Shown piece after piece: positions 5,490 through 62,993 of a DNA stretch of 64,000 nt. The first letter of the stretch is position 1, and each line of letters starts with the position of its first letter. This DNA is from a virus, in IMG/VR virus record IMGVR_UViG_3300029922_000007, positions 1 through 64,000 of that record, one strand, 5' to 3'. A program made the translations under genes and the position numbers. The notes below the pieces were generated by a model. The model saw only the letters and a program-made list of their open reading frames with translations, had not been told where the DNA came from and did not search any database.

Positions 5490-5650
5490 AATACTTGAAG
5501 GTATTGGTTCAACCAATTAAAATTAAGGGTTCCGAGGATGACATTGAAACCTTACAGGCGGATCTTTTTGAACGACTAACGGCACTAATTGAGTCCGAAA
5601 CTCTTACCTTTGAAATCATTGACGAAGACGAAGACTCAGACGAGGATTAA
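5486..5650 (+). CDS. Small acidic protein (not in ORF track)
   Basis: GGAG SD, ATGA overlap; MKYLKVLVQP...EDEDSDED. Confidence 0.55.
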   Translation: MKYLKVLVQPIKIKGSEDDIETLQADLFERLTALIESETLTFEIIDEDEDSDED

Positions 5651-5699
5651 ATGAGCTTACTCTGGATTGTTATTCTAATTCTACTAATCGCAATGTGGC

Positions 5700-6197
5700 T
5701 CAGTCCTTAAATCCGCCCTTATTCCCTTCAGCCGCCTCATCACTCATCTCTAGCGATTCGAATGACATACTTCCCCCTTTGGGGGGTATAGGCTTAACTT
5801 CCTTATCAGAAGTCTTTTTTGCCAGAAGTGGATTTTTCAATTCACCAGTTATAGGATCTTTGGTTTTGGCTAATCGCTTGATCTCTTTGTTCATCACAGC
5901 GTCAACCATATCTTCCAGGTCCTGCTTGTTCATACGAGAATAGGTTGGATCTTGCATAGTATATAACTTATCTAATAGGTCTTCCATCTCATCGTGAATT
6001 TCAGATGGTTGATACTTGTCTTCGTATAGGTTCTTCAAGACGAACATAGGATCTAAATCGTAGACCTCATGCAGAGGCGTTCTAAATCTATCAGAGTACT
6101 CTCTGCATCGTATTGAATAGATCGATTCAGGCGTTGGAGATAAGGCCACCCCAATGGCTAGAAGTTCGGCATGATGGATTAGGTCGTAGAAGTTCAT
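5700..6197 (-). CDS. Putative tail assembly chaperone partner
   Basis: CREYSDRFRTPLHEVYDL segment; lies near the 6606 chaperone-like gene. Confidence 0.4.
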   Translation of the reverse strand: MNFYDLIHHAELLAIGVALSPTPESIYSIRCREYSDRFRTPLHEVYDLDPMFVLKNLYEDKYQPSEIHDEMEDLLDKLYTMQDPTYSRMNKQDLEDMVDAVMNKEIKRLAKTKDPITGELKNPLLAKKTSDKEVKPIPPKGGSMSFESLEMSDEAAEGNKGGFKD

Positions 6198-6613
6198 AGG
6201 CCAGCGTCGTTTTTGTCCATACGAGCAAATCGGGCCTTATCCGATTCGTGAGCATTTAAATTTTCTCCCAAAATATGATCCGTAGTCCATACAGAAGGGC
6301 ACATAGTTGCCGTACCAGTAGTGGTGACTCCTCCATTAAGGGTCACGGTTCCAATTGAAGAGGGCAAATTACTAGTGGTCTCGACACTATAAGGCCACTG
6401 CTGATGGCCTGGGGGAAGAGGGGTTCCAATAAAAGGTTGCATGTTTGGCCAGAGAGGTCCACTTGCACCCCCAGCTCCCTGATTGGGTTGTGGCGGGATA
6501 TAAAAAGTGGCAGTCTTAAGCCGTTCAATCTCGGCCTTCAAATAGTTAAGAAGTTCTTGTTGAGTCTTAATAGTTTGGTTAAGGGCATCAATTACGGCTT
6601 GATCGTTACACAT
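6194..6613 (-). CDS. Hypothetical protein (coiled coil plus Pro/Thr-rich region)
   Basis: Overlaps both neighbours. Confidence 0.5.
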   Translation of the reverse strand: MCNDQAVIDALNQTIKTQQELLNYLKAEIERLKTATFYIPPQPNQGAGGASGPLWPNMQPFIGTPLPPGHQQWPYSVETTSNLPSSIGTVTLNGGVTTTGTATMCPSVWTTDHILGENLNAHESDKARFARMDKNDAGL

Positions 6614-7061
6614 CTTCGTCTCCTTCTTGTTGGATTAAATCTTCAGCACTTTGGATTGTCTTTTTTAGCACGGTATCGCGTTCAGCGGTCATCTTGGCTT
6701 GGAAGGCAGCAGCAGCTCTAGCACTGGCATCCAATACTAACAATAGTACGTTCTTATCGGGGATAGAACCAGGCATCTCTCCGGCCTGTTGGGGGGTATA
6801 CCAGAAAGGTGGGGCAGAGATAACCCTATACTTAAGTTGGGTGAGGGCATATGCGAGATAACTTTCATCTTCCGATGAAAGGGATGCGTGAGGACCAAGA
6901 AGCTCTCTATAGAGGCGACTAGCACCAAGTTCTTCGGTAGGGCTCAGGAAACATCTCAGCTTGAATGTGCCGTTGTAGGTTCCCCCAATGAGACCTTGAA
7001 CGTTACTCATAGTCCAAGTAGCTGTAGAGCCTTCAATAACTAGATCTGTGTCAGTTTGCAT
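6606..7061 (-). CDS. Putative tail assembly chaperone
   Basis: YNGTFKLR...L...VISAPPFW pattern seen in large-myovirus chaperones; GAGG SD. Confidence 0.5.
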   Translation of the reverse strand: MQTDTDLVIEGSTATWTMSNVQGLIGGTYNGTFKLRCFLSPTEELGASRLYRELLGPHASLSSEDESYLAYALTQLKYRVISAPPFWYTPQQAGEMPGSIPDKNVLLLVLDASARAAAAFQAKMTAERDTVLKKTIQSAEDLIQQEGDEDV

Positions 7062-7440
7062 AAAAACCTCAATGAAAGTATATCACAGAACGCCCCACAG
7101 GTTCGTCGGCTTTTTGTTTTATGGTTGCCTGCGGCGCTGGCCAAGAAAAAGAACGAGGGTATAGTTCATCGAACGATACTCGTTCTCCTAGAGTTGGAGA
7201 GGAAGCTAGTCACTGCGTTCCCCGCTTGGATCGAGAGAAAGAGAAAGTAAGTGTTCTTTTCGAACTTATATCATGAAGAAAAGCCGTTACTACAATTATT
7301 TTTCAGAAAAATCATCGAAACCCAATAACTACCCATAATCATTACTAAAAGACCTAATAATAGTTTTACTCCATTTATAATGGCAACTATTATGACCAAA
7401 AACGGCTATTTTGGAAACAATACTTTCCATTACAAACTTC

Positions 7441-7469
7441 TTGCTCTTACCTGTTGGATAGGCTATAGT
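7441..7469 (+). promoter_or_regulatory. Sigma70-type promoter, leaderless to 7477
   Basis: TTGCTC-N17-TATAGT with the ATG 7 nt downstream and no SD. Confidence 0.65.
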
Positions 7470-7476
7470 AGCGTGT

Positions 7477-7707
7477 ATGAGTGATAGTAACATGTTTAAG
7501 GTGGCAAATAGATATAGACACAGGAACTGCCTAGATATGGATATTGTTGTGACCTATATCCATAAAGTTGGGCACTATGGGACAGATCTCGACGTACTCT
7601 ACTGGAATAGGAACTATAACTCCCCCGCTGTAGGTGGAACGGAAGAAGTATTTATCAAAAAAGACGACTATCCAAATTGGACTTTGGTTGAGGAGAACTT
7701 TGTATGA
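7477..7707 (+). CDS. Hypothetical protein
   Basis: ORF directly after the promoter. Confidence 0.6.
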   Translation: MSDSNMFKVANRYRHRNCLDMDIVVTYIHKVGHYGTDLDVLYWNRNYNSPAVGGTEEVFIKKDDYPNWTLVEENFV

Positions 7708-8189
7708 GTGTTAAGGGTGGAGATAAAATCAAGATTTTGAAGAATAACCCGCAAGAAGCAGGCTCAGTCAAAAAAGGCGACGTAGCCACTGTTAAAAACG
7801 TATATTCTAATAGCTTTACTTATTACATTGACGGCGAAGCTACGACTGAATGGCTCTGGCGGGCAGACTACGACCAAGAAGGAAAGACTTGGGAGAAAGT
7901 AGTGGGTAAGACTAAAGCCTCCACCAGTTCTGCACGGGATGAATCCTTTTGGGCAGATCAAGTTAAACAAGCGAAATCAAAAGACAAAACCTTCAAGGTC
8001 GGCGAACGAGTTGTAGTTTATGATTCTCGTCTTAGGCCTATGCGCCAGGTGGCTACCCTTACTCTTCTTCGAGATCCTAATGGGCATCACCCAAAAGCGT
8101 TTTGTGTCATCGGAGTTAAAAGGGTAGACTATCCAAGTACCGATGAGCTGATTCTACATCCAAAACAAGTAAGGAAAATTAAGAAATGA
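7704..8189 (+). CDS. Hypothetical protein with two SH3/KOW-like modules
   Basis: VKGGDKIKI and FKVGERVVV starts. Confidence 0.55.
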   Translation: MSVKGGDKIKILKNNPQEAGSVKKGDVATVKNVYSNSFTYYIDGEATTEWLWRADYDQEGKTWEKVVGKTKASTSSARDESFWADQVKQAKSKDKTFKVGERVVVYDSRLRPMRQVATLTLLRDPNGHHPKAFCVIGVKRVDYPSTDELILHPKQVRKIKK

Positions 8190-11462: not shown

Positions 11463-12260
11463 CTATTCCTTGTTTGAGTCTTTAAGAAATCTGAATTTAC
11501 CGTCTTTTCCTAATTTCTTACCCTTATTAGGACTTGGCTTGCCGAACATAGGATTATTTTCGCCAGAAGCCAATGCTGACATTTTCTTTTTAGATTCCCC
11601 TGAATGAAGTTTTCCTTTTCTAGAAGCAGATTGTTTTGCTCGGGTTTCTTCGGATGCTTTCTTTCCAGTGTTAGCTATCGATATTTTCTTTTTAGATTCC
11701 TCTGAATGGGGAATTCCCCCTATTTTTTTACGAGAAATACTCATTTTAGCTTTAGTTTCTGCGGAAGCCTTCCGACCTGTTGCTGCCAAAGACAACTTTT
11801 TAATAGTTTCTTCAGACGGCTTGTTTCCCATTTTTGCAAGAGAGCATTTGGCCTTAGTTTCTTCTGATAGAACCTTTCCCGTATGGGATTTACTCATCTT
11901 AATTCGTGTTTCGTCGGTGTGTGTTTTACCCGTGTTAGCAATAGAGATTTTAGTTTTACTTTCCTCGTGGAGTTTTCCTCCATTGTTTCCGCCGCTTTTT
12001 AAATTATACCCATTAGGGACTACGGTGTTGTACCAGCTTATGAAGTACTCTTCCGCTAGATTTAAATCTTCTAAATTGCTGTACGTACCAATAATCATTA
12101 CTGAAAAGGATTCCTTGCCATATTTGCTTACGGCATTACTTAAATAGGTACAAGTAGAATACAGTTTAAAATGATCGTAGATTCTATCTTCTAATGGCTG
12201 AATCGTTTGCCCTATATAGATCATTCCGTTAATTTTATTAGTTATTTTATATACAACCAT
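11463..12260 (-). CDS. GIY-YIG homing endonuclease with NUMOD3 repeats
   Basis: VVYKITN...IYIGQT; GYNL; repeated HTDETRIKMS-type motifs. Confidence 0.9.
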   Translation of the reverse strand: MVVYKITNKINGMIYIGQTIQPLEDRIYDHFKLYSTCTYLSNAVSKYGKESFSVMIIGTYSNLEDLNLAEEYFISWYNTVVPNGYNLKSGGNNGGKLHEESKTKISIANTGKTHTDETRIKMSKSHTGKVLSEETKAKCSLAKMGNKPSEETIKKLSLAATGRKASAETKAKMSISRKKIGGIPHSEESKKKISIANTGKKASEETRAKQSASRKGKLHSGESKKKMSALASGENNPMFGKPSPNKGKKLGKDGKFRFLKDSNKE

Positions 12261-17569: not shown

Positions 17570-18397
17570 TTAGGGGGCTTCTCGCAGATACTTAAACCTG
17601 TACCCATTTGTACCGCGTTGTTTTCCCCGTAAGGTCCTACTTATTCCAGTTATGTTTATATCCAATTCGTCTCCAGCGCTTTGCAGGGTATAGTAGGTTT
17701 TACCATTGTTTAAACAAATAAAGGGTTCTCCTCTATTCGCTTCCGATATTTTTTCGCGACTCTGCTTTGACATCCTATTCCCAAAATTGGGATTGTTTTC
17801 ACCCTTTGTAGCTTTAGAGATTTTTTGTTTTACTTCTTCTGAAACCGTCTTTCCTGTGCTAGAAACAGATATGTTACGCCTTACCTCTTCTGAGCGCGGA
17901 ACTCCTTTCTTTGATTCACCTATTTTTATTTTAGATGTCTCTGCGTGCTTTCTACCCGTCCCAGCCTTGGATATCTTATCTCTCGTTTCATTCGTAGCGG
18001 TTTTTCCAAAATTTGGGTGCTTTTCTCCGCTTATAGATTCGGAGTGTTTTTTCTTCCGTTCTTCTGTCCAAGTTTTTCCTTTACCCGCCTCAGACATTTT
18101 TTTACGAGTTTCATCCGAAACCATATGATTGTTTCCACCCGTATGGAGGTTGTATCCATTTGGACTCATCGTATTATAATATTCTATAAAGTATTCTTCG
18201 GCCAAATTCAAATCTTCTATGTTATCACATGTATGGATAATACTTTGAGTGAAATTTTCTTTTCCGTATTTCTTTATAGCCTTATAAAGGATAGACCCGG
18301 CGCAGCAATGTTCGGTCCACCTTCTTTTTAAGGTTTTTATGGTCTGACCTATATATTCCTTACCGTTAATTTTATTAATAATTCTATAAACGATCAT
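17570..18397 (-). CDS. GIY-YIG homing endonuclease (NUMOD3 + NUMOD1)
   Basis: IVYRIIN...EYIGQT; NUMOD3 repeats; C-terminal HTH. Confidence 0.9.
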   Translation of the reverse strand: MIVYRIINKINGKEYIGQTIKTLKRRWTEHCCAGSILYKAIKKYGKENFTQSIIHTCDNIEDLNLAEEYFIEYYNTMSPNGYNLHTGGNNHMVSDETRKKMSEAGKGKTWTEERKKKHSESISGEKHPNFGKTATNETRDKISKAGTGRKHAETSKIKIGESKKGVPRSEEVRRNISVSSTGKTVSEEVKQKISKATKGENNPNFGNRMSKQSREKISEANRGEPFICLNNGKTYYTLQSAGDELDINITGISRTLRGKQRGTNGYRFKYLREAP

Positions 18398-19059: not shown

Positions 19060-21993
19060 TTATGATGCCGACTGTTGAACTGCCGATAAGGCGAGATCAA
19101 TGGCCACAAAATATAAGCTTGTGGTAAGTTTCGCCTCAACAGCAACGAACATAGAAGGTGCTGCGATTTGGATGGATGCATTGCGATACCCGAGCGGCGC
19201 GTCGTTGCTTGCCGTGGTCATTTTGAGCTTGCGGTAGTAGTCAAATCTCTGTTGCAAAAAACTCAAAGCGCTTGCTGCTGAAAGATCCGCAAGAGATTTT
19301 CCAACCATTGATTGCTGAAAACTCTGTGCAAGATCTAATGAGAGCAAATCCGATAAGTATACACTTTGAATACTGTTATATACGAAGTTAGCATCTAAAC
19401 CATAAGTTGTTTGGTCACTGACCCACTTGATTCCATTCACATCTTGCGAAAGAACCAAAAGCCCCGCAGTCAACGCATCCGACACATCGAATGGATCTCC
19501 ATTGTCGTATCCGGAAGGATCAGTGATAGAAACAATGTTTGCGTAGTGATTGCAAATAGACTTATAGAATCCACCAGCTTGCATACCAGCAGCTATAACT
19601 GCAGCATACCAAGGCTGAAACAAAGTGTTAACGCCGAAGCTGTTGACCTGAGTCACTTGCTGATCGGTCATGTAGCAACGATACGTTCCAATTCCCTGTG
19701 CCTGAGCTTTGGCCTGAGCATAGGTACCATTGAACGAGAGTCCAGCCATACGATTCTTTTTAAGAACAGGAGTAGAGAACTGCAAACAATGGGTTTTGAG
19801 GAGTTCATTGATGGCATCGATCGTATACGTGGATGCAGGATCGGTATTCCCTGCAAGAATGTCCGCAGTGGCATCCTGAGAGAACAAAGGAACAATGATG
19901 TTACATTGAATCCCAGCAAGCTGAGAAATTGCATTTACAATGTCGATTGCCAACGTTGGGCCGAGAGTTCCGCCAGATAGGAACACACCACTTGAAGGGA
20001 ATGGAATACCAGCGAACATGATAGGAGTAAACGAGAGAGCTGTATTTGCAGCCATCTGTGTTTGGAATTCATAGGCTGAATCCTTAATACGACCTGGCTG
20101 AGCACCAGGAGTACTGGTTGCGATCCCAATAGCACTCACTTGATCCAAGCTAGAAGGTGGAAGCGAGATAGCCGAAGGGGTAGCAGTTGCTGAGTAACCA
20201 GGCTGAGCATTAATGAATGCCGCAAGTTGTCCAACCGTAGAATACTGCGAAAGAGTAGCCGACAGATTACCGCCAGTTCCGCCCGTAACCGAAGTAGTCA
20301 GGGTAGTCGCATTAACACTAACAGTACCAGTCGTACCCAAGTATCCGATAGTCAAGGCCACCGCAGGGGTAATATCGATCGTGCTATTAAAGCCCGTAGC
20401 AGTATTCGTGGTTTGAACTTCGATAGCTGGTTCTTGTGCAGCAGCAAAGTTTCCAGCAGGCAAGCCCAATGCAGCCAAATCACCAGGAGTAGAATCGATC
20501 AATTCGAAGCTTTGGCTATAACCTGCAGCGTACGATGCAGGGTTTGCCGCCATGGTCAAAACCACGGTATTCAAAGCAACGCCAGCGGAAGCAGTAATAC
20601 CGGCTGGAAGTAGACTATTCAGTTCCACAATCAATTCTGCAATATTAGCATGAGAATTGGTGATGACCATACCAGGTGGGAAACCCGTAATGGAATTCGT
20701 AGGATAGGACCCAACGTCTCCATGGACAACCGTAGCGCCAGTGTTCGTTACGCCGGTAGCGCCCAAAAGGCCAAATTCTCCAGCAACACCGAGCGGTGCA
20801 GATGCCTGAGCATTAATGTTAGTTGCTACGCTGACCGTAACCGCACCATTAAGTGCGATCACGCTACCATTGACTGTGCCACCACCCAAGGTAACACTCG
20901 TATTGGCGATAATGTTTCCGTTGAAGGTATTGGTTGCGCCGAGGGTTGCCGAACTACCAACTTGGAAAAACACATTAGCTGCAGTAGCTCCGCCAGTCAA
21001 AGCGATTGTCGCTCCAGCGCCAGTGACGAGAGTGCTAGAACACTGAAACACATAGGTTCCAGCACCATTCAGGGTAAGTGTCCCCGAAGCGGCGATAGCA
21101 AAGGTTCCACTAGATTCTGAATAGGTTCCAGGAACTAAGGTTTGGCCACCAAGAGTGCTCGATATTGGGGTCGGCGTCAAGGCTTCCAAGGTATTGTATT
21201 CTGCTAGAGCATCGGATTGCCCGGTCATAGCAGACGCACCACCACCACTAGAACTCAACGTGATAACATCCGTAGCGCCACCATTCTGACGAATAGTAAA
21301 GGTATCGCCATTCAGAGCAGCTCCAAAAGCAGGAACGGTAGTCCCAGTAACCTGAGGAGGAGTTTCAGTATCCAAGGAAGTGATGGTGTAGCTAAAGCCG
21401 TTTCCTCCAACACCATAATTCTGTGAAAAGAACACGCCGTAAGTACTGCCAGAGAAGGCCGAGTAGGCAATCGTCGAATCACCAGTTCCGGAAGTTTTAG
21501 TTAAAGTCCCAGAAGCTGTAGGAGCGCCGGTTCCGGAAGCGACCAGAGTAGTCCCAGCCGCAATCGTGCTTTCGACCACAAAAGTTTGGTCATTATTACT
21601 ATACGTAGCGCCAACCGTAGCATTTGCAGCGGTAACAGTAAAGGTATAGGCCCCAACAGGAGAGTGAGCCTCAGTACCTTTATTGGTTTTAAGGATGTAA
21701 ACGCTAGAAGCCGTACCGGAAATGTCAGGATCGTTCGAAGGAGCAGCGAGGGCATTAAAGGCATCCACGATAGGACCTGAGCCATAAATACTACGAACCA
21801 AATTACCCTGTTGAGGGCCGAAGAAGTTCGTCTTCAAATTCGTAACGCTATAGTCTGGACCAGCAGCAGCTTCACCCATCAGGACGATGACGCCAGAAGT
21901 GGCAAGGCCGGAAGCCGTTGAAATTACAGTGGTATTTACGTAGGCACCTGGGACGTTGGTCCGAACGAAAGGTGTAATAAGTTGTTGTGACAT
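19060..21993 (-). CDS. Contractile tail sheath protein with inserted domains
   Basis: N-terminal VPGAY...GEAAAGP; C-terminal sheath core (DQTTY...NSIQ); DUF3494-like insert at about 20655-21250. Confidence 0.88.
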   Translation of the reverse strand: MSQQLITPFVRTNVPGAYVNTTVISTASGLATSGVIVLMGEAAAGPDYSVTNLKTNFFGPQQGNLVRSIYGSGPIVDAFNALAAPSNDPDISGTASSVYILKTNKGTEAHSPVGAYTFTVTAANATVGATYSNNDQTFVVESTIAAGTTLVASGTGAPTASGTLTKTSGTGDSTIAYSAFSGSTYGVFFSQNYGVGGNGFSYTITSLDTETPPQVTGTTVPAFGAALNGDTFTIRQNGGATDVITLSSSGGGASAMTGQSDALAEYNTLEALTPTPISSTLGGQTLVPGTYSESSGTFAIAASGTLTLNGAGTYVFQCSSTLVTGAGATIALTGGATAANVFFQVGSSATLGATNTFNGNIIANTSVTLGGGTVNGSVIALNGAVTVSVATNINAQASAPLGVAGEFGLLGATGVTNTGATVVHGDVGSYPTNSITGFPPGMVITNSHANIAELIVELNSLLPAGITASAGVALNTVVLTMAANPASYAAGYSQSFELIDSTPGDLAALGLPAGNFAAAQEPAIEVQTTNTATGFNSTIDITPAVALTIGYLGTTGTVSVNATTLTTSVTGGTGGNLSATLSQYSTVGQLAAFINAQPGYSATATPSAISLPPSSLDQVSAIGIATSTPGAQPGRIKDSAYEFQTQMAANTALSFTPIMFAGIPFPSSGVFLSGGTLGPTLAIDIVNAISQLAGIQCNIIVPLFSQDATADILAGNTDPASTYTIDAINELLKTHCLQFSTPVLKKNRMAGLSFNGTYAQAKAQAQGIGTYRCYMTDQQVTQVNSFGVNTLFQPWYAAVIAAGMQAGGFYKSICNHYANIVSITDPSGYDNGDPFDVSDALTAGLLVLSQDVNGIKWVSDQTTYGLDANFVYNSIQSVYLSDLLSLDLAQSFQQSMVGKSLADLSAASALSFLQQRFDYYRKLKMTTASNDAPLGYRNASIQIAAPSMFVAVEAKLTTSLYFVAIDLALSAVQQSAS

Positions 21994-22003
21994 AAATTTC
22001 CCC

Positions 22004-22915
22004 TTAAATCATTTCAGCAAAATGTAATTTGCCGTGTTCTTTTGTACGGCACGCGTAGTTCTTGTTTACAGAATCGTCTACAGCTCTCATACTTACATTA
22101 AAGATTGCAGCGACGGCCCTACGCGAATCAAAAATCTCTTTAGTTTCTAAGCAGATAACTCTCTTATGAGATCCAGGCTTAGATTTTCTCTCAAGTCTAT
22201 TCTTTTCACACAGAGCTTGAATTGCAGGATCCTTAGAGCGGATTGAAAATCCCTTGATAGTGTCGGCCTTACCACGAATAACGTTAGTAATATTTGGAGC
22301 CTTTGCTCCAATGGCTTGAGCTAGATCTTCAGTTCCCGCAAATTCAACCCATACGCCGTTCATCAACGCCTCTACAGGCTTTTTATTCTTGATGGCAGCC
22401 GCCAAAGCCTGTTCGACGACCTTCGCCATATGGTCTGGATTGTCAGCGAGCCTCTTCTTCATACCCTCAGAAACCTTGTCGGCCCAAGTAATTTCTCGGC
22501 CAGTCATTTTTTGGCTCATTAGGGCTTTAGTTTCTGCGGTGTGGGTTTTTCCGGTGCATGATAGGACTCGTTTTTTCTTCTCTTCTTCAGATTGAATACG
22601 CCCCCTTACACCGTGACCACCCGTAGTCATGTTATATCCAAGGCCGCCGCCAAAACACAGACTGTTAAGCTCTTTAATCCAAAAGATTTCCCTATTGTCT
22701 AGTTCGGTTTCAAAAGTTACTTCAATGGTCTCGATCTTAAAGTTTTCTGCGCCATATTTACGAATAGCCCTACAGAGCGCTAATTCACTTCCAAGATTCG
22801 CAGTCCTAACATGCTTAGAAAACCTCAACTCCACCGTATAAACAGTCTGACCAACGTACAATTTGCCGTTGATGAGGTTAGTAATGAGGTAGATGGAGCC
22901 TAGAGAAGCTTTCAT
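22004..22915 (-). CDS. GIY-YIG homing endonuclease
   Basis: SIYLITN...LYVGQT; GYNMT; two NUMOD1-like HTH domains. Confidence 0.9.
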   Translation of the reverse strand: MKASLGSIYLITNLINGKLYVGQTVYTVELRFSKHVRTANLGSELALCRAIRKYGAENFKIETIEVTFETELDNREIFWIKELNSLCFGGGLGYNMTTGGHGVRGRIQSEEEKKKRVLSCTGKTHTAETKALMSQKMTGREITWADKVSEGMKKRLADNPDHMAKVVEQALAAAIKNKKPVEALMNGVWVEFAGTEDLAQAIGAKAPNITNVIRGKADTIKGFSIRSKDPAIQALCEKNRLERKSKPGSHKRVICLETKEIFDSRRAVAAIFNVSMRAVDDSVNKNYACRTKEHGKLHFAEMI

Positions 22916-35264: not shown

Positions 35265-35355
35265 TTTATACCCCTAAAGAGAATTCTATAGAGTTAAGAT
35301 TGGCAATTGAGGATTTTGGTTGCAAAAGGAGGTATTTGAGGGTAGGATCGTGGGT

Positions 35356-36039
35356 ATGAGTGATATAGTTAAAGACATTTTGGCCGTACAGGATCGCCTA
35401 GCAAGGACGACATTTGGCCATCTTTCTCCAGAAGACGTTAATTTCATTAGGAGTGTAAATACCTTGAAAACTGTGCCAACTGAGACCGTGGGAACCACCG
35501 AACCCCTACAAACGGAAAGAGTGGAGTATGTCGTAGCACTTAAGGAACTAGCCAAGTCCTATGTCGGTCCAGAACAGGTCCTTAATTCATTCAAAGAACA
35601 CAAGGATGTAGAATTTCCATGGATCGACAAGCCACTTCAGACGGTAGAGGAATGGACTCAGACCATGAAAGACCATGTAGGGAAAGAACTTAAGAAAGAG
35701 CTGGAATCATCGCATGTAGGACAGGATAAGGCTATTCGATACGACCAAAACAAACCCCAAATGGACCTTTTGTCGCCCATCGCTATGTTTGGCCTAGCTC
35801 AGGTCATGACCCATGGTCTCAAGAAGTATCCCGGAAGTCAATGGAAGAAGGGGATGGCTTGGAGTAAAGTTACGGCTAGCCTTTTGAGGCATTTATTCAA
35901 GTTTATGGCTGGAGAGGACATCGACCCAGAGTCGCTTTGCCCACATATTGATCATGTGGCTGCTAATGCGATGTTTCTTCAAGAATACTTCAGGAAACAC
36001 AAGGATTTGGACGATCGGATGAAGACTGGGTTGGAATAG
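35356..36039 (+). CDS. dATP/dGTP diphosphohydrolase domain protein (DUF5664-like)
   Basis: YDQNKPQMDLL...GLKKY...W.KG...LLRH...GEDIDPES..PH. Start set by TTGCAA-N17-TAGGAT 7 nt upstream. Confidence 0.8.
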   Translation: MSDIVKDILAVQDRLARTTFGHLSPEDVNFIRSVNTLKTVPTETVGTTEPLQTERVEYVVALKELAKSYVGPEQVLNSFKEHKDVEFPWIDKPLQTVEEWTQTMKDHVGKELKKELESSHVGQDKAIRYDQNKPQMDLLSPIAMFGLAQVMTHGLKKYPGSQWKKGMAWSKVTASLLRHLFKFMAGEDIDPESLCPHIDHVAANAMFLQEYFRKHKDLDDRMKTGLE

Positions 36040-41906: not shown

Positions 41907-42599
41907 ATGTTGATTTACATGATAACCAATAAAATAAGCGGAAATCGATATATCGGACAAACAGTCCAAAGGTTGGAGAAGCGATGGTGCCAACATTGCA
42001 ATCTGACTCCCAACTCTAAACACAGAAATATGCCTATTGTGAGAGCCATCCAAAAGTATGGCAGGGAGAACTTTGAAATCAAAGTATTGGCTAGATGCGC
42101 CTCTATTGAAGAAATGAATCACAGAGAAGAATACTACATCAAGATATTCAACACGTTATCTCCCAATGGGTATAATTTGGACAGCGGTGGTAAAAATAGA
42201 AGGACCCATCAATCAACCAAAGACAAGCTGTCTAAGATACACAAGGGAAGGCCGGGGAAAGCACCCTCTCAAGAAACCAGAGATAAAATAGCCAAGGCTA
42301 ATTTTGGTAAAAAGTGCTCGAAGAAAACTCGAAATAAAATGTCTGAGTCTAGATCTGGGTCGAACAATCCTAATTTTGGCGGCAAATCCGTTACGGAAAA
42401 ACAAAGGCAGGCATTAAGAGAGTATAGTACGGGAAGACCCTCTCCTAGACGTAAGAAAGTACTTTGCGTTACAACTGGAACAGTTTATCCATTTCTTATG
42501 GAAGCCGCTAAAGTATTGGGAATAAATTTTCAGGCAATTGCTAGAGTTTGTAGCGGCGAAAGACCTCACACGCACGGACTAATTTTTAAGTATATTTAG
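41907..42599 (+). CDS. GIY-YIG homing endonuclease
   Basis: LIYMITN...RYIGQT; NUMOD3 and NUMOD1 motifs. Confidence 0.9.
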   Translation: MLIYMITNKISGNRYIGQTVQRLEKRWCQHCNLTPNSKHRNMPIVRAIQKYGRENFEIKVLARCASIEEMNHREEYYIKIFNTLSPNGYNLDSGGKNRRTHQSTKDKLSKIHKGRPGKAPSQETRDKIAKANFGKKCSKKTRNKMSESRSGSNNPNFGGKSVTEKQRQALREYSTGRPSPRRKKVLCVTTGTVYPFLMEAAKVLGINFQAIARVCSGERPHTHGLIFKYI

Positions 42600-42988: not shown

Positions 42989-43097
42989 TTTGTTCTTGCT
43001 ATTCTATTCGACATGATATAATCTTAGTTGTAAGGCAGGTTTGAGTTAGTATCCTTGATTGACGTGGATACGGCTTAGACCTAGATAAGGAGCCCCC

Positions 43098-43865
43098 ATG
43101 CTATACTTAAACGGTCTTCCCGTTCCCACCACTATGTTTTCAGACAATACCTCTCAGGTCTGGAAGCTCCCCGAAGAAATCCTCACTACAACCAATTTTG
43201 CTCATGTAACTTGGGAGTTTAGCAATGAAGGTGAATTCCTTCAACTTGCTCAACTTAAGTTGCTCCTAGATCATTACGATTTTAGGACAGTACTCAGACT
43301 TCCCTATCTTCCTTATGGTCGCCAAGATAAGGAGCCTAGCAATACCGCTACATTTGCTCTTTATGCCTTCGCTGAACTTCTCAACCATCTTGGGTTCGAG
43401 GAAGTTATCTGCATGGACCCACATAGTTCTGTGGCCGAGGAGCTTATCTATAATTTTAAAGCTATTTACCCTGTAGATAAGATCTATGAGGTCGCAAAGC
43501 TTGTAGAAGCAAACCTTTTCTGTTATCCAGATGCTGGCGCTTTCGAGAAATATATCAATCTGCTTAAGGGTGGCCATATCTATGGTGAGAAGGTTCGAGA
43601 TCAGCTCACCGGCAACATTACAAGCTATAAACTGATTGGAACGCCTATCGGAACTGTTCTCATAGTGGACGATATTTGTGATGGCGGTATGACATTTAAA
43701 CTTTTGGCCAAAGACCTACTGGCTGCGGGTGCAAAGAGCGTGGTGCTCTTCGTGACTCATGGGATCTTTTCGAAGGGAACTAGAACTCTCTTCGAATCGG
43801 GTATCCAACGGATTTTCACTCACGCTGGTGAAGTAAGTGAACGTCAAGGCACAATTCAAATATAG
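43098..43865 (+). CDS. PRPP-synthetase-like protein, probable NARP1 ADPR-PP synthetase (Adps)
   Basis: LPYLPYGRQD, MDPHS, PDAGA and IVDDICDGGMT motifs; adjacent to a Nampt homolog. Confidence 0.85.
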   Translation: MLYLNGLPVPTTMFSDNTSQVWKLPEEILTTTNFAHVTWEFSNEGEFLQLAQLKLLLDHYDFRTVLRLPYLPYGRQDKEPSNTATFALYAFAELLNHLGFEEVICMDPHSSVAEELIYNFKAIYPVDKIYEVAKLVEANLFCYPDAGAFEKYINLLKGGHIYGEKVRDQLTGNITSYKLIGTPIGTVLIVDDICDGGMTFKLLAKDLLAAGAKSVVLFVTHGIFSKGTRTLFESGIQRIFTHAGEVSERQGTIQI

Positions 43866-43875
43866 GATATTATAT

Positions 43876-45348
43876 ATGAAAAATCTGAACGCAATGTTGT
43901 TGGCCGATTTCTATAAGGTTAGTCATAAAAATATGTACCCGGTTGGTACCGAAGTGGTGTTTTCAACTTGGACCCCTCGTGCTAGCCGTATGAAAGGCGT
44001 TGACGAAGTGGTAGCCTTTGGTCAGCAAGCTTTCATCAAGGAATTTTTGATCGATTTCTTCAATCTGAATTTTTTCCACCAAGCTAAGGCCGACGTAGTT
44101 AAAGAATATTCCAGAATTATCAAGAATACTCTAGGGGTTGCTAATCCAGAGACAAAGCATATCGAAGAGCTGCATGATCTTGGGTACCTTCCTCTTTTGA
44201 TTAAATCTGTCCCAGAAGGGACTTTGGTACCTTTGCGGGTTCCAATGATGACCATTCAAAACACCGATAAGCGCTTCTTTTGGCTTACCAATTTTGTTGA
44301 GAGCTTGGCTTCCTGCCAGCTTTGGCAGCCTTCGACTTCAGCAACTATTGCTGGAGAATATCGGAAGATCTTGGATGAAGCTTCTCTGAAAACGGTTGGA
44401 AATACTGATTTCGTTCCCTTCCAAGGGCATGATTTTAGCTTTCGCGGTATGTCTTCCCTTCAGTCTGCAATGTCGAGTGGGATGGGGCACCTCCTCTCCT
44501 TCGTTGGTACGGACACGATTCCCGCCATTCAGGCCGCAGAATACTACTATGGAGCCAATGTTGAAAAAGAGTTGGTTGGGACATCGATTCCAGCCACCGA
44601 GCACTCTATCCAATGTAGCTACGGTAATGACTTGGAATACCTGACTCAAATGATGTCCGTAGTACATCCTTCGGGCTTCGTGTCCATTGTTTCCGATGGG
44701 TATGATTTCTGGGATGTTATCGGTAGGGTTATTCCAGCCCTTAAAGACAAAATCATGGCTCGTGATGGCCGTGTTGTCATTCGACCTGATTCCGGTGACC
44801 CAGTTAAGATCGTTTGTGGTGATCCAGATGCACCTAAGGGTAGTTTGGAGTATAAGGGCGCAGTCGAAGCCCTTTGGGATATCTTCGGAGGCACTGAAAC
44901 CGGAAAAGGATATAAAGTCCTCGATTCTCACATTGGCCTGATCTATGGAGACGCCATCACCCTTTTTAGGGCTAAAGATATTGTAACTAAGTTGGCTGAA
45001 AAAGGATTCGCTTCCATTAACGTGGTTTTTGGGATTGGGTCGTATACCTATCAGTACAATACTCGTGATACCTTCGGATTTGCTCTCAAGAGCACTTTAT
45101 GTGTCATAAATGGCGTTGAAAAGCAGATCTTCAAAGACCCAAAGACTGATGATGGAATCAAAAAATCTCAAAAAGGTAAGGTTCATGTCTACAAAAGTGG
45201 CGGAAAGATTACCTTTAGCGATGGCCACGACCTAAATTCGGAGCTTTCAACGGATCTCTTGCAACCCATCTTCAAAGATGGTAAGCTGGTCCGAGAAGAA
45301 AGTTTCGCTCAAGTCAGGGCAAAACTTAAGGAGAACGCAAATGGGTGA
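43876..45348 (+). CDS. Nampt-like protein, probable NARP1 Namat
   Basis: LADFYKVSH, HDFSFRG, PATEHS, VIRPDSGDP, IYGD and KKSQKG motifs. Confidence 0.9.
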   Translation: MKNLNAMLLADFYKVSHKNMYPVGTEVVFSTWTPRASRMKGVDEVVAFGQQAFIKEFLIDFFNLNFFHQAKADVVKEYSRIIKNTLGVANPETKHIEELHDLGYLPLLIKSVPEGTLVPLRVPMMTIQNTDKRFFWLTNFVESLASCQLWQPSTSATIAGEYRKILDEASLKTVGNTDFVPFQGHDFSFRGMSSLQSAMSSGMGHLLSFVGTDTIPAIQAAEYYYGANVEKELVGTSIPATEHSIQCSYGNDLEYLTQMMSVVHPSGFVSIVSDGYDFWDVIGRVIPALKDKIMARDGRVVIRPDSGDPVKIVCGDPDAPKGSLEYKGAVEALWDIFGGTETGKGYKVLDSHIGLIYGDAITLFRAKDIVTKLAEKGFASINVVFGIGSYTYQYNTRDTFGFALKSTLCVINGVEKQIFKDPKTDDGIKKSQKGKVHVYKSGGKITFSDGHDLNSELSTDLLQPIFKDGKLVREESFAQVRAKLKENANG

Positions 45349-45823
45349 TGAAAAGTTTCATTTTTTCTACGGTGGACCCTTTAGCCAATGGTATAGGAGC
45401 GTATTTGAGATCGATGGAGTAAAGTATAACTGTGCAGAACAGTATATGATGGCTATGAAGGCCACTTATTTCAATGATACGGACGCCTTAGCCAAGATCA
45501 TGAAAGCTCATGACCCTTCTACCCAAAAAGCAACCGGTAGGATGGTTAAGAACTTTGACGCAGAGTCTTGGGATGCTGTGTCTAGAGGGTTCGTTTATAA
45601 GGCCAATATGGCTAAGTTCGCAACTCCTTATTTGAAGGAATTTATTCTTTCTACCCATAATGAGGAAATTGTTGAAGCCAGCCCTGTAGACCGTATTTGG
45701 GGTATCGGGCTGTCTGAAAGAGATCCTGACCGATTCGATAAATCAAAGTGGCGTGGCAAAAATTGGCTTGGTGAAGTTTTGATGAAAGTCAGGGAAGACT
45801 TGAGATCTGGAGCTAAAAGCTAA
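45341..45823 (+). CDS. NADAR (YbiA/DUF1768) family protein
   Basis: FSQWY, AEQYMM..KA..F.D, VEASPVDRIWGIG and GKNWLG motifs. Confidence 0.9.
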   Translation: MGDEKFHFFYGGPFSQWYRSVFEIDGVKYNCAEQYMMAMKATYFNDTDALAKIMKAHDPSTQKATGRMVKNFDAESWDAVSRGFVYKANMAKFATPYLKEFILSTHNEEIVEASPVDRIWGIGLSERDPDRFDKSKWRGKNWLGEVLMKVREDLRSGAKS

Positions 45824-45824
45824 C

Positions 45825-46298
45825 ATGAAGGTCATTAAGTCTCCACAGGCATTCCCTAAAAAAGTCTTTAAGGCCTATCGAACTCCATCTGTATTTCTAG
45901 CCGGAAGCATTGAAATGGGTAAAGCCGTTGATTGGCAGACTCGTGTAACTAACGAACTATCCGAAGAGAACGTCCTCATTTTGAATCCCCGAAGGGACGA
46001 TTGGGATTCTTCGTGGGAGCAAAAAATAGAGAATGCTCAATTCAAGCAACAGGTGGAATGGGAACTTGACGCGCTAGAGTATGCCGATTGGATCCTGATG
46101 TATTTTGATCCTAGTACTAAGTCCCCTATTTCGCTGCTGGAACTCGGCCTATTTGCTGAAACTGGAAAATTAATTGTATGCTGTCCAGAAGGCTTTTGGC
46201 GTAAAGGTAACGTTGACATAGTTTGCGAAAAATATGGAGTGCCTCAAGTTGACAGTATTGAAGAGCTAATTGAAAATCTTATAGGAGAACTAGAGTAA
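45825..46298 (+). CDS. Nucleoside 2-deoxyribosyltransferase-like protein
   Basis: VFLAGSIEMG..DWQ, NPRR, QVEWE and SPISLLELG motifs. Confidence 0.85.
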   Translation: MKVIKSPQAFPKKVFKAYRTPSVFLAGSIEMGKAVDWQTRVTNELSEENVLILNPRRDDWDSSWEQKIENAQFKQQVEWELDALEYADWILMYFDPSTKSPISLLELGLFAETGKLIVCCPEGFWRKGNVDIVCEKYGVPQVDSIEELIENLIGELE

Positions 46299-46741
46299 TG
46301 AGCAACGTAACTATCGTCAAGGGTTCCCTTTTTGATGCCCCTAAGGGTTCCATTATCTGTCATGCCTGTAACTGCCAAGGAGTCTGGGGTTCAGGTATTG
46401 CCAAACAATTTGCCCAAAAATACCCATACGCATACAAGTTCTACAATAGAATTTGTAACGAAGGTGGGGACATTCTTGGGTCATGCCTTCTTTTGGATAC
46501 CGGAGATCATACTATTGGATGTCTTTTTACCTCGACTAACTTTGGTAGTAAGGTAGATTCAGTCCCAGAAATCTTGGATGCCACAGCCGACGCTATTGGA
46601 GATTTGATCTGGCAAAATACGGATAATAAGCCAATCCATATGTGCAAAATCAACAGTGGCTTATTTGGCGTGGACTGGAATTTGACACTTGAGGTTCTGG
46701 AGTCATATCCAGAACAAGAATTTACCGTGTGGGAGTTCTAG
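46298..46741 (+). CDS. Macrodomain protein (Poa1p/TARG1/DarG-like)
   Basis: KGSLF, HACNCQGVWGSGIAKQF and KINSGLFGVDW motifs. Confidence 0.88.
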   Translation: MSNVTIVKGSLFDAPKGSIICHACNCQGVWGSGIAKQFAQKYPYAYKFYNRICNEGGDILGSCLLLDTGDHTIGCLFTSTNFGSKVDSVPEILDATADAIGDLIWQNTDNKPIHMCKINSGLFGVDWNLTLEVLESYPEQEFTVWEF

Positions 46742-46923
46742 TTGAATAAAAAGCCTGAAAGAACAATCCTAAACATGTCGCAAATGACTGCCTGGCTAAA
46801 CGCCTACAGTTGCTGCCCTTACTGTAAGGGAAATGAGTTTTCAGACAAGACGGACACCTGCGTAAACTGTGGTGCCCCTAGAGCTAAAGTTGAAGATTTT
46901 GGTCGAGATGCGAGGGAAGACGA

Positions 46924-47247
46924 ATGAGCCTTTATAGTATGGGAGATTGTGGTCATTCTGTTGAGTTTGGCTCTAATTGCCAACAATGCGAATGGAACGA
47001 ATTATCTAAGAACATAGAGGACCTAAAAACGGAACTTGAGGAAGAGAAGAGAATTAACCGTATCCTACACTCAGACCGTAACGAAGTCTTTAAACTGTGG
47101 GATATGCATAAGTATAGGCTTTATTTGGCACTTGAAGTATTAGAGAAAATATATAGTGGACTGCCAAGCTACGGCCTTCTTGATGGTAGCGGAATTGATG
47201 CTCGTCTGGAAGTAGATAAAGCCCTTGAGAAAATTAAGGAAGAATGA
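46924..47247 (+). CDS. Hypothetical coiled-coil protein
   Basis: GAGGG SD; N-terminal Cys cluster. Confidence 0.55.
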   Translation: MSLYSMGDCGHSVEFGSNCQQCEWNELSKNIEDLKTELEEEKRINRILHSDRNEVFKLWDMHKYRLYLALEVLEKIYSGLPSYGLLDGSGIDARLEVDKALEKIKEE

Positions 47248-62195: not shown

Positions 62196-62993
62196 ATGGA
62201 ATTTCAGGAATTTGCAAGTATCGAGATCTTAGAGTCGTTAGTAACTATCAGTGAAAAAATTCATGGCACCAATGCGCAAATTGCGATCAACGATTCTGGT
62301 ACAGAAATGTACGTAGGATCTCGTACTCGATGGATTACTCCAGAAGACGACAACTATGGATTCGCTTCTTGGGCCTATGCAAATAAAGACACCCTGATCG
62401 CGCTTCTTGGGCCAGGCAGGCATTTTGGAGAATGGTATGGGGCAGGTATTGGCCCTGGATATGGACTTAAGGAAAAACGTTTTGCTCTATTCAACACCCA
62501 TCGTTGGACTAAGCCTAAACAGGATGGATTGCTTCTCCCTCGAATGGATGTAGTTCCAGTTCTGTATAGCGGCATTTTTACCCCAACGGTCGTTAAAGAA
62601 ACCCAAGATAAGCTCAAAAAGGAAGGATCTTCCTTGGTTCCTGGTTTTATGCGCCCAGAAGGTATTGTAATGTACTTCTCACGCACTCAGACATATTTCA
62701 AGCAGGTCTTCGATAAAGAAGAAACCGGATGGGATAGGAAAGACAAGAAAGAAAAAGTGGCCACAGATCCAGCTCTAGAAGCAAAAGTGCTGTCTTATCT
62801 TCAACCTGTGCGTCTAGAAAAGCTTATTATGAGGGACGATCGCTATCTCCGAGAGTATCCAAAAACACTGCCAGATATCGCTCGCGACTATGTGGCAGAC
62901 CTAGTTAAAGAATCAGAGCCTATCGATCCAGTAATCTTGGCGGAAGTGAAGAAAAAAGCATTTGTATTTATTAGGGAGACATACGGAAAATGA
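62196..62993 (+). CDS. RNA ligase (Rnl2-like)
   Basis: SEKIHGTNA (motif I), GSRTR, FGEWYG, FALF and PEGIV motifs. Confidence 0.85.
   Translation: MEFQEFASIEILESLVTISEKIHGTNAQIAINDSGTEMYVGSRTRWITPEDDNYGFASWAYANKDTLIALLGPGRHFGEWYGAGIGPGYGLKEKRFALFNTHRWTKPKQDGLLLPRMDVVPVLYSGIFTPTVVKETQDKLKKEGSSLVPGFMRPEGIVMYFSRTQTYFKQVFDKEETGWDRKDKKEKVATDPALEAKVLSYLQPVRLEKLIMRDDRYLREYPKTLPDIARDYVADLVKESEPIDPVILAEVKKKAFVFIRETYGK

Follow-up and report, generated by a model that had tools for sequence, protein, structure and literature searches.

Five co-directional open reading frames (ORFs) on the + strand, at positions 43098–46741 of the first 64 kb of the 166,169-bp IMG/VR virus record IMGVR_UViG_3300029922_000007 (CheckV 100% complete; these 64,000 nucleotides are called the window), probably form a phage operon for NARP1-type NAD+ reconstitution with three accessory enzymes. 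In order, they encode Adps and Namat, which by sequence are NARP1, a NADAR of the YbiA subfamily, an NDT-like protein of the family PF15891, and a Poa1p-like macrodomain protein, termed macro below. The ORFs were confirmed at these positions: Adps and Namat lie 10 nt apart, Namat and NADAR overlap by 8 nt, NADAR and NDT-like lie 1 nt apart, and NDT-like and macro share 1 nt. An earlier note on this DNA had described five tightly coupled genes with gaps or overlaps of at most 10 nt and no nicotinamide mononucleotide (NMN) adenylyltransferase, and both observations held: PF01467 gave 0 candidates in the complete 166,169-bp record, and the same search was positive in 14/14 control genomes. Among all 228 ORFs of at least 50 aa, Pfam scans found no cytidylyltransferase-like domain, Nudix, ADP-ribosyltransferase (ART), SIR2 or KptA domain and no second Macro or NADAR domain.

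In the proposed mechanism a host defence would split NAD+ into ADP-ribose (ADPR) and nicotinamide. Adps would convert ADPR with ATP to ADPR-pyrophosphate (ADPR-PP), from which Namat, using nicotinamide, would re-form NAD+; both activities are known in close homologues and are predicted here. By homology, the Poa1p-like macro would turn ADPR-1''-phosphate into ADPR for Adps, as in the arrangement named NARP1-AP, its substrate arising from the action of aRES and other RES-type defences or from Tpt1/KptA RNA repair. NADAR and NDT-like, both predicted N-glycosidases, would, to judge from context only, serve the same ADPR/NAD+ economy. NADAR most likely frees ADPR from N-linked conjugates, e.g. guanine-ADPr or small-molecule adducts. 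For NDT-like the leading guess is a nucleotide 5'-phosphate N-glycosidase, which could for instance clear adenosine monophosphate (AMP), the inhibitory by-product of Adps; alternatively, it may cleave an N-glycosidic product derived from NAD+.

Adps and Namat

Namat matched the Pfam domains NAPRTase (8e-42) and NAMPT_N; over 484 residues, its identity to the Namat of Bacillus phage SPbetaL1 was 62%. Its clamp motif, GSYTYQYNTRD, fits exactly the Namat-only signature GSX-phi-X-phi-X-phi-TRD (X aromatic), which is described as separating Namat from Nampt and as stacking on the adenine of ADPR-PP (PMC12774641). Among solved chains, 9W5X/9W5W scored 673 bits and 9KE8 518 bits, and all true Nampts at most 235 bits. 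Going by their chain length (491 aa) only, 9W5X/9W5W are presumably structures of the SPbetaL1 Namat. True Nampt-type neighbours of NDT-like genes in other loci have GGALLQ..DRD at the position of the clamp motif.

Adps remained under the cut-offs of both PF00156 and PF14572 and matched phrog_619 at 4e-59; identity to the SPbetaL1 Adps was 36% (E 1e-28). With the NCBIfam models for phosphoribosyl pyrophosphate (PRPP) synthetase (PRPS), the best score was 81 bits for TIGR01251 against a cut-off of 113, and all equivalog models were far under theirs. Alignments to solved PRPS chains stop about 30 residues short of the Adps C-terminus, near PRPS residues 255–280 of about 318, and the PRPS chains extend about 60 residues past the end of the alignment. 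Loss of the C-terminal alpha11–alpha12 module has been reported as a signature of Adps (PMC13586617; see also 10.1101/2024.02.11.579819), and the 255-aa protein, being too short for this module, is consistent with Adps rather than PRPS. Published catalytic and ligand residues of Adps are Lys185, Arg87, His121, Asp161 and Asp212/213/216 in the numbering of UniProt F1D1Q1. AMP is reported to inhibit Adps, with about 35% of activity remaining at 500 μM (PMC13586617).

The assignment of genes 1 and 2 to NARP1, already made in the earlier note, was borne out, because of the Namat identity and clamp motif, the adjacency and identity of Adps, and the absence of an NMN adenylyltransferase. A published count puts NARP1 in 4.3% of phage genomes. 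Ordinary nicotinamide salvage, in which a true PRPP synthetase and Nampt would yield NMN for conversion to NAD+ by the NMN adenylyltransferase of the host, is very improbable. It would agree with the PHROG names 'ribose-phosphate pyrophosphokinase' and 'nicotinamide phosphoribosyl transferase', with an NCBIfam match above cut-off (NF006629) and with the report that Namat retains some activity with PRPP in vitro (PMC12774641), but it is opposed by the Namat-only motif, by the drop from 673 to 235 bits towards true Nampts and by a PRPS-like protein that is truncated and under all PRPS cut-offs; moreover, the true-Nampt loci with GGALLQ..DRD also carry NadM.

As a separate observation, the NARP1 locus of the Kayvirus Staphylococcus phage Maine holds an unannotated 131-aa gene (L253:4656-5051) between the PRPS-like and Nampt-like genes, possibly a further NARP1 accessory.

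Macro, NADAR and NDT-like

Macro matched PF01661 at 1.5e-9 and phrog_335, named 'phosphatase', at 4e-26. Its best solved relatives were four entries of yeast Poa1p, of which 6LFQ/6LFT reached E 3.5e-25 and 92 bits with both halves aligned; the next matches were 5M3I with 36 bits and 5M31 with 31 bits, which we take to be DarG macrodomains. The Poa1p entries differ among themselves at H23, S30 and F152, with H23 altered in 6LFS. At the positions of H23 and F152 (altered in 6LFS and 6LFU) macro retains His and Phe, and 5M3I has Asn at the position of H23. The likeness to Poa1p points to ADPR-1''-phosphate and not to ADP-ribosylated thymidine as the substrate, and macro is best read as a candidate Adpp, i.e. 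an ADPR-1''-phosphate phosphatase. The DarG-type macrodomain of the earlier note was abandoned: with the DarG model NF048014, for which the threshold is 250 bits, it scored 35.8, with residues 5–71 aligned to model positions 2–67 of 338, and the 147 aa amount to the macro domain only, without the DarT-binding C-terminal part.

A preprint on NARP1-AP (10.64898/2026.01.28.702374) describes that this system, Adps-Adpp-Namat, defeats the RES-domain defence aRES, the product of which, ADPR-1P, is unusable by plain NARP1; that Adpp of Vibrio phage Gary converts ADPR-1''-P to ADPR; and that Poa1p is the closest known relative of the macro protein found in 15% of 859 phage NARP1 operons. A homologue of macro lies directly 3' of Namat in the relatives L173, L175, L180, L190 and L212. 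Two details count against the Adpp assignment. Macro has Val at the position of Poa1p S30 and, as the third gene after Namat, it misses by one gene the NARP1-AP criterion of that preprint, a macro gene within two genes of NARP1.

NADAR matched PF08719 at 1e-48 and the YbiA-type model TIGR02464 with 157.8 bits (cut-off 73.7). The best solved chains were 8BAU, the orphan NADAR of P. nicotianae with ADPr (3e-12), and E. coli YbiA, 2B3W (1.6e-5), and the Glu of the 'IVEAS' segment aligned with a Glu in both. In the last strand, Glu is reported for the YbiA family, Asp for DarT1-linked NADARs and His for the T4 gp30.3 type (PMC11125620), and the aligned Glu would be this family-defining residue. 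The part ahead of the YbiA core is only about 11 residues long; an N-terminal extension, proposed in DarT1-linked NADARs to bind single-stranded DNA (PMC11543638), is absent. The protein was consequently assigned neither to the DarT1-linked (BC4488) nor to the T4 AdfN type, as it has Glu instead of Asp or His, no N-terminal extension and a TIGR02464 score above cut-off, and the DarT1-linked eraser assumed in the earlier note gave way to a YbiA-type enzyme. As the name of the NCBIfam model indicates, NADARs of the YbiA type also go by the function of N-glycosidases for riboflavin intermediates, which counts against a role in NAD+ reconstitution.

That NADAR and macro erase DNA ADP-ribosylation by DarT1 (guanine) and DarT2 (thymidine), counter DarTG and pass ADPR on to NARP1 is quite unlikely. 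The idea draws on the in-vitro hydrolysis of guanine-ADPr by all NADAR classes tested, including YbiA and the P. nicotianae orphan (PMC11125620, PMC11543638), and on the reversal of DarTG1 defence by phage NADARs of several clades (PMC11257639). A weak match of the window NADAR to the NCBIfam model for anti-phage NADARs fits it as well, as does the place of the DarG macrodomains 5M3I/5M31 as second-best solved relatives of macro (36/31 bits). Opposed to it are the 92 bits with the retained His for Poa1p, set against 35.8 of 250 bits for a DarG model most of which is missing from macro. In one study, moreover, neither E. coli YbiA nor the T4 NADAR rescued cells from DarT1 toxicity (PMC11125620), and the window NADAR has Glu instead of Asp and no N-terminal DNA-binding extension. 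An anti-DarT1 role of the window NADAR is possible but not indicated.

The closed loop of the earlier note, in which ADPR stripped from DNA or protein feeds NARP1, was retained in part. Neighbouring enzymes that feed NARP1 have precedents in Adpp and RyDEP, and Bacteroidota operons combine NARP1 genes with ADP-ribosylglycohydrolase (ARH), PARG, macro, NADAR and KptA. The flux from DNA was given up: on stoichiometric grounds, DNA adducts would be far too few to refill the NAD+ pool, and a substantial flux from them into NAD+ is unlikely.

NDT-like is a clear member of PF15891 (Nuc_deoxyri_tr2; 4e-40, 136.8 bits, cut-off 30) and fell below the threshold of the classical NDT model PF05014 (20 bits, cut-off 28.8); among NCBIfam models there were zero matches. 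Its sequence matched 4MCJ, an uncharacterised structural-genomics protein, at E 4e-30, and a search of PDB sequences with the family profile found only this entry; a search of the ESM Atlas found PF15891 clusters only. The AlphaFold2 model (predicted local distance difference test score, pLDDT, 94.6) was ranked by Foldseek nearest to 4MCJ with a template-modelling (TM) score of 0.84, then to YtoQ, MilB, DNPH1 and NDTs, with TM scores of 0.61–0.67 to YtoQ/MilB and 0.55 to DNPH1. The nearest characterised folds are those of MilB, a cytidine monophosphate (CMP) N-glycosidase, and DNPH1, a deoxynucleoside monophosphate (dNMP) N-glycosidase. In 50 homologues of 52–71% identity, R56, R57, E80, E106 and the stretch CCPEGFWRKGN were invariant, E106 being located in SPISLLELG; the comparison with MilB/DNPH1 is one of folds, not of residues.

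From the modelled fold, NDT-like may be an N-glycosidase acting on a phosphorylated nucleotide. An enzyme for nucleoside monophosphates (NMPs), removing for example AMP, is favoured as a guess, because of the MilB and DNPH1 folds, the two invariant Arg, the origin of AMP as a by-product of both Adps and the Nudix domain of NadM, and the inhibition of Adps by AMP. It is equally conceivable that the enzyme cleaves an N-glycosidic NAD+ derivative or exchanges its base or, given the other contexts of the family, that it belongs to the nucleotide pool and is mere cargo of an accessory hot-spot. Literature searches returned no paper on PF15891 or 4MCJ, none joining 'deoxyribosyltransferase' with 'NARP1', and nothing useful on YtoQ.

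Gene neighbourhoods in phages and bacteria

Two sets of viral loci were compared: the 80 IMG/VR NARP1 loci nearest by Namat, and 80 IMG/VR PF15891 loci (NDT side) in which neighbours were counted within 6 kb; the window's own record was possibly left out of both. For dereplication, NDT proteins of at least 90% identity were merged. In the first set, 61 loci had Adps and Namat only, 12 a Poa1p-like macro, and three each a NADAR and an NDT-like gene; on the jumbo-phage contig L248 a NADAR-macro-NDT group was situated 2.7 kb upstream of Namat. The lineage of the window shares a conserved frame, protease ... Adps-Namat-[slot]-endolysin-orf105-ligase, in which the content of the slot varies: it is empty in L174, L176–L179 and L222, holds macro alone in the five relatives listed above, NADAR alone in L183 and NADAR with macro in L192. 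In L181 and L182, where the frame is cut off downstream, no accessory gene was found.

On the NDT side, a gene of the Namat/Nampt family was present within 6 kb in 29/80 loci, and either this or Adps in 34/80, corresponding to 27/66 groups after dereplication. The 29 neighbours comprised 16 with the Namat motif, 10 of true Nampt type (GGALLQ..DRD) and three fragments. NDT-like genes stood near Adps, Namat or Nampt in several gene orders, often with start–stop overlaps with Adps or Namat; the order Adps-NDT-Namat was found in eight viral loci, and macro-NDT-like-true Nampt on the jumbo-phage contigs L055, L058, L059, L068, L070 and L073 (at about 5500–8000). The Nampt-type set also included a NadM-like gene combining NMN adenylyltransferase and Nudix domains (representative L083:4561-5580). 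NDT-like thus accompanies operons of both the NARP1 and the NARP2 type.

A FastTree tree of 164 NDT proteins placed the window copy nearest to unlinked copies of sister phages and required 20 changes of the label linked/unlinked, of which well-supported branches force at least 4, in a tree that is weakly supported overall (26/150 inner branches starred).

In bacteria, PF15891 had at least 566 confirmed matches in species-representative genomes, from which the best 80 loci were sampled. NARP genes were linked to 30 of these 80 (27/73 groups after dereplication), nearly all from Bacteroidota as far as record titles name the taxon (Aquimarina, Spongiivirga, Fluviicola, Saprospiraceae, Chitinophaga and other Flavobacteriales), with one proteobacterial name (L148). 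Partners in one co-directional operon with NDT-like were Adps in 27, Namat in 22, NADAR in 21 (by phmmer) and a Poa1p-like macro in five of the 30 loci; Adps and NDT were directly adjacent in this order in 13 and NDT and Namat in 10, and the stop codon of the first gene often overlapped the start codon of the second. An NrtR-type regulator, a fusion of Nudix and winged helix-turn-helix domains, heads 26 of the 30 operons. By clustering and Pfam, further genes were KptA/Tpt1 and a calcineurin-like phosphoesterase (16 each), ARH and a 2-oxoglutarate (2OG)-Fe(II) oxygenase (13 each), a canonical macro and DUF4291 (11 each), microbial PARG (6) and LOG/SLOG (4). In L114:5183-12015, for example, the order is NrtR-Adps-NDT-like-(ARH)-NADAR-DUF4291-macro-KptA-2OG oxygenase-calcineurin-like phosphoesterase-Namat (compare L122, L128, L148 and L171). 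With housekeeping genes as flanks (aconitase, MoxR-type AAA, TonB receptor), the operons are not obvious prophages.

Such operons may recycle ADPR derivatives to NAD+ under ADPR-sensing regulation. In one route, the KptA product ADPR>p would be processed by a phosphodiesterase, converted by a Poa1p-like macro to ADPR and returned to NAD+ by Adps and Namat, and the phage would have acquired a subset of this bacterial toolkit. A direct origin of the module from a Bacteroidota host was rejected as unproven; the window Namat is 55% identical to Bacteroidota copies versus 62% to the Bacillus phage copy. In three loci of Saprospiraceae type, one at L108:2154-2780, a second, divergent PF15891-like gene (2e-8) was noticed beside the canonical one in the same operon.

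On this basis we tentatively propose, as conceivable rather than probable, that PF15891 proteins and YbiA-type NADARs are dedicated parts of NAD+ rebuilding, repeatedly recruited to phage NARP1, Nampt/NadM and Bacteroidota NrtR operons, in which PF15891 would remove AMP or turn an NAD+-derived N-glycoside or immune signal into ADPR or nicotinamide.

Several counts weigh against such a dedicated role and against a five-gene functional unit. NADAR and NDT-like are rare even in the nearest NARP1 loci (3/80 each), and the exact five-gene array occurred in 0/160 viral loci; of the conserved gene linkage considered in the earlier note, the pairwise links recur and the whole array in phages does not. 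The presence of PF15891 beside true Nampt and NadM (10 loci) means that it is not specific to the supply of ADPR for Adps. No NARP gene was nearby in 46/80 viral loci, whose neighbours included ThyX, Dam, dCMP deaminase, Nudix and DUF4326, or in 50/80 bacterial loci. In sister phages (L012:2499-6269, L013:5571-8993, L021:4216-6486) NDT-like is found in an RNA-repair region between HAD_SAK_2 and COQ7-like homologues, and on the 170.6-kb contig to which both L012 and L179 belong it is about 115 kb from NARP1. The corresponding site of the record studied here (genome 152785-154243) contains an HNH endonuclease ORF, the NDT-like gene being instead in the NARP1 cluster.

In another reading, the slot is an accessory hot-spot, with NADAR, NDT-like and macro as independent cargo lacking any metabolic coupling; NDT-like could then be a dNMP/NMP N-glycosidase that serves nucleotide pools or RNA repair, and NADAR could counter a host defence on its own. 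We consider this unlikely. The varying slot content among close relatives, the HAD_SAK_2 RNA-repair neighbours of NDT-like in sister phages, the majority of PF15891 loci without NARP genes, two unrelated small ORFs in the same tight array and GIY-YIG homing endonucleases nearby would all suit it; but linkage of PF15891 to Adps, Namat or Nampt in 27/66 viral and 27/73 bacterial dereplicated groups, in varied orders and against the 4.3% base rate of NARP1, argues for coupling, as do the chromosomal operons headed by NrtR and flanked by housekeeping genes, in which NADAR, macro and NDT-like accompany Adps and Namat.

Locus layout and comparison with known systems

The features of the locus are given in Table 1. 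A consensus scan for promoters and terminators yielded no site above shuffled sequence at the locus, including the leader. For Namat, a listed ORF with an alternative GTG start at 43837 lacks a Shine–Dalgarno sequence, and ATG 43876 is the likely start. The two small ORFs after macro had zero matches in Pfam, PHROG and NCBIfam and zero homologues in the 80 related NARP1 loci, and are probably unrelated cargo. The array is flanked on one side by a prohead-protease-like gene and a GIY-YIG homing endonuclease gene and on the other by a convergent M15 endolysin gene and the gene for an ATP-dependent DNA ligase. When the locus was compared with cultured phages by Megablast, there was no match.

Table 1 Features of the extended NARP1 locus (window positions; aa, amino acids)
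Feature	Positions	Strand	Remarks
Leader (intergenic, before Adps)	42989..43097	+	AAGGAG ribosome-binding site; TATAAT-containing stretch
Adps (PRPS-like, ADP-ribose pyrophosphokinase by sequence), 255 aa	43098..43865	+	ATG 43098, AAGGAG upstream
Namat (Nampt-like, nicotinamide ADP-ribose transferase by sequence), 490 aa	43876..45348	+	ATG 43876, 10 nt past Adps
NADAR, YbiA subfamily, 160 aa	45341..45823	+	ATG 45341, 8-nt overlap with Namat stop (45348)
NDT-like (PF15891), 157 aa	45825..46298	+	ATG 45825, 1 nt past NADAR stop 45823
Macrodomain, Poa1p-like, 147 aa	46298..46741	+	ATG 46298, one base in common with NDT-like stop (TAATG)
Small ORF, 61 aa, CxxC...CxxC	46742..46927	+	no gap after macro; translationally coupled
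Small ORF, 107 aa	46924..47247	+	translationally coupled; closes seven-gene tight array

Elsewhere in the phage genome, four GIY-YIG homing-endonuclease genes, three with NUMOD3, were present in the 64 kb (11463-12260, 17570-18397 and 22004-22915 on the − strand, 41907-42599 on the + strand), one of them about 500 nt 5' of Adps. A dATP/dGTP diphosphohydrolase N-terminal domain, PF18909 (1e-27), at window 35320-36039 (+) could be a sign that nucleotide pools are altered or the DNA is modified. An RNA-repair set at genome 152785-157525 and window 62196-62993 includes HAD_SAK_2, RlaP, a T4 Rnl1-like ligase, PNKP and a second RNA ligase, with no KptA/Tpt1 gene in the set, and a YspA/cpYpsA SLOG protein is encoded at genome 151510-151902. 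PF11999 ice-binding-like domains occur in three proteins, one of 2746 aa (window 19060-21993, genome 115094-123334 and 149914-151239, all −), which are probably fibres or receptor-binding proteins.

NAD+ depletion is among the commonest bacterial anti-phage strategies, and earlier NARP1 accessories each exposed new host chemistry, Adpp leading to aRES and RyDEP to cyclic ADPR (cADPR) signalling. NADAR and NDT-like may similarly be handles on not-yet-known NAD+-derived molecules or on a pathway bottleneck. If PF15891 proteins and NADARs are dedicated parts, a wider range of defences would be beatable by NAD+ reconstitution, and bacterial NARP1, the role of which has been called an open question (PMC12774641; 10.1101/2024.02.11.579819), would gain a physiological role; the NrtR-headed operons suggest the recycling of ADPR derivatives, including the KptA by-product, to NAD+. 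Finding the substrate of PF15891, a family with the solved structure 4MCJ and at least 566 bacterial matches, would annotate many genes.

NARP1, NARP1-AP, NADAR beside phage NAD+ salvage genes and Macro/NADAR/SLOG neighbourhoods are already known. A recurrent association of PF15891 with operons of the Adps/Namat and Nampt kinds was not found in print, although de Souza and Aravind 2012 and the supplements of the aRES preprint may bear on it; the extended Bacteroidota NrtR operon was likewise not found and may be covered by de Souza and Aravind 2012 or Aravind et al. 2015.

With NARP1 of SPbetaL1 (10.1101/2024.02.11.579819, PMC12774641) the window shares the adjacent Adps-Namat pair, the type of clamp motif and independence from an NMN adenylyltransferase, but the annotated SPbetaL1 region has the two genes only, whereas NADAR, NDT-like and macro follow directly downstream in the window. 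NARP1-AP of Vibrio phage Gary (10.64898/2026.01.28.702374) likewise has a Poa1p-like macro in a NARP1 operon, with the conversion of ADPR-1''-P to ADPR against aRES as its predicted role; the comparison was made through Poa1p and the published description, the Gary record being absent from the matches listed by tblastn (60 of 571 records in one search, all 39 in another). Its order is Adps-Adpp-Namat, whereas in the window macro comes last, third after Namat, and the accessible text of that preprint contains 0 occurrences of 'NADAR' and 'deoxyribosyltransferase', both of which extra enzymes are present in the window. The same logic applies to RyDEP in the NARP1 locus of mycobacteriophage DyoEdafos (10.64898/2026.05.28.727677), an accessory glycosidase that converts 2'/3'cADPR to ADPR for Adps and Namat; RyDEP differs in its RyR R12 domain fold (PF02026) and its O-glycosidic substrate, the window NADAR and PF15891 protein being predicted N-glycosidases.

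Phage NADAR genes beside genes for NAD+ salvage, a placement shared by the window, were described next to NadV/NadM by Iyer et al. 2022 (PMC9503650), who also noted the joint occurrence of Macro, NADAR and SLOG domains and considered soluble ADPr derivatives their probable substrates. NARP1 was not yet known at the time of that study, and NadV is taken there to be Nampt; in its accessible text, DrHyd versions are given for viruses only in the ADP-ribosyl-cyclase-like form, and PF15891 does not appear as a partner of NadV. For bacteria, nrtR-prs-nadV operons, one of them in Cytophaga, were reported by Rodionov et al. 2008 (PMC2330246), an Adps/Namat-like pair under ADPR-sensing NrtR of the kind seen in Bacteroidota here, and the Adps/Namat pair of Paenibacillus foliorum has been described as active (PMC12774641). 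As far as their accessible texts go, both reports concern two genes only, to which the Bacteroidota operons found here add PF15891, NADAR, ARH, macro, KptA, a phosphoesterase, an oxygenase and DUF4291.

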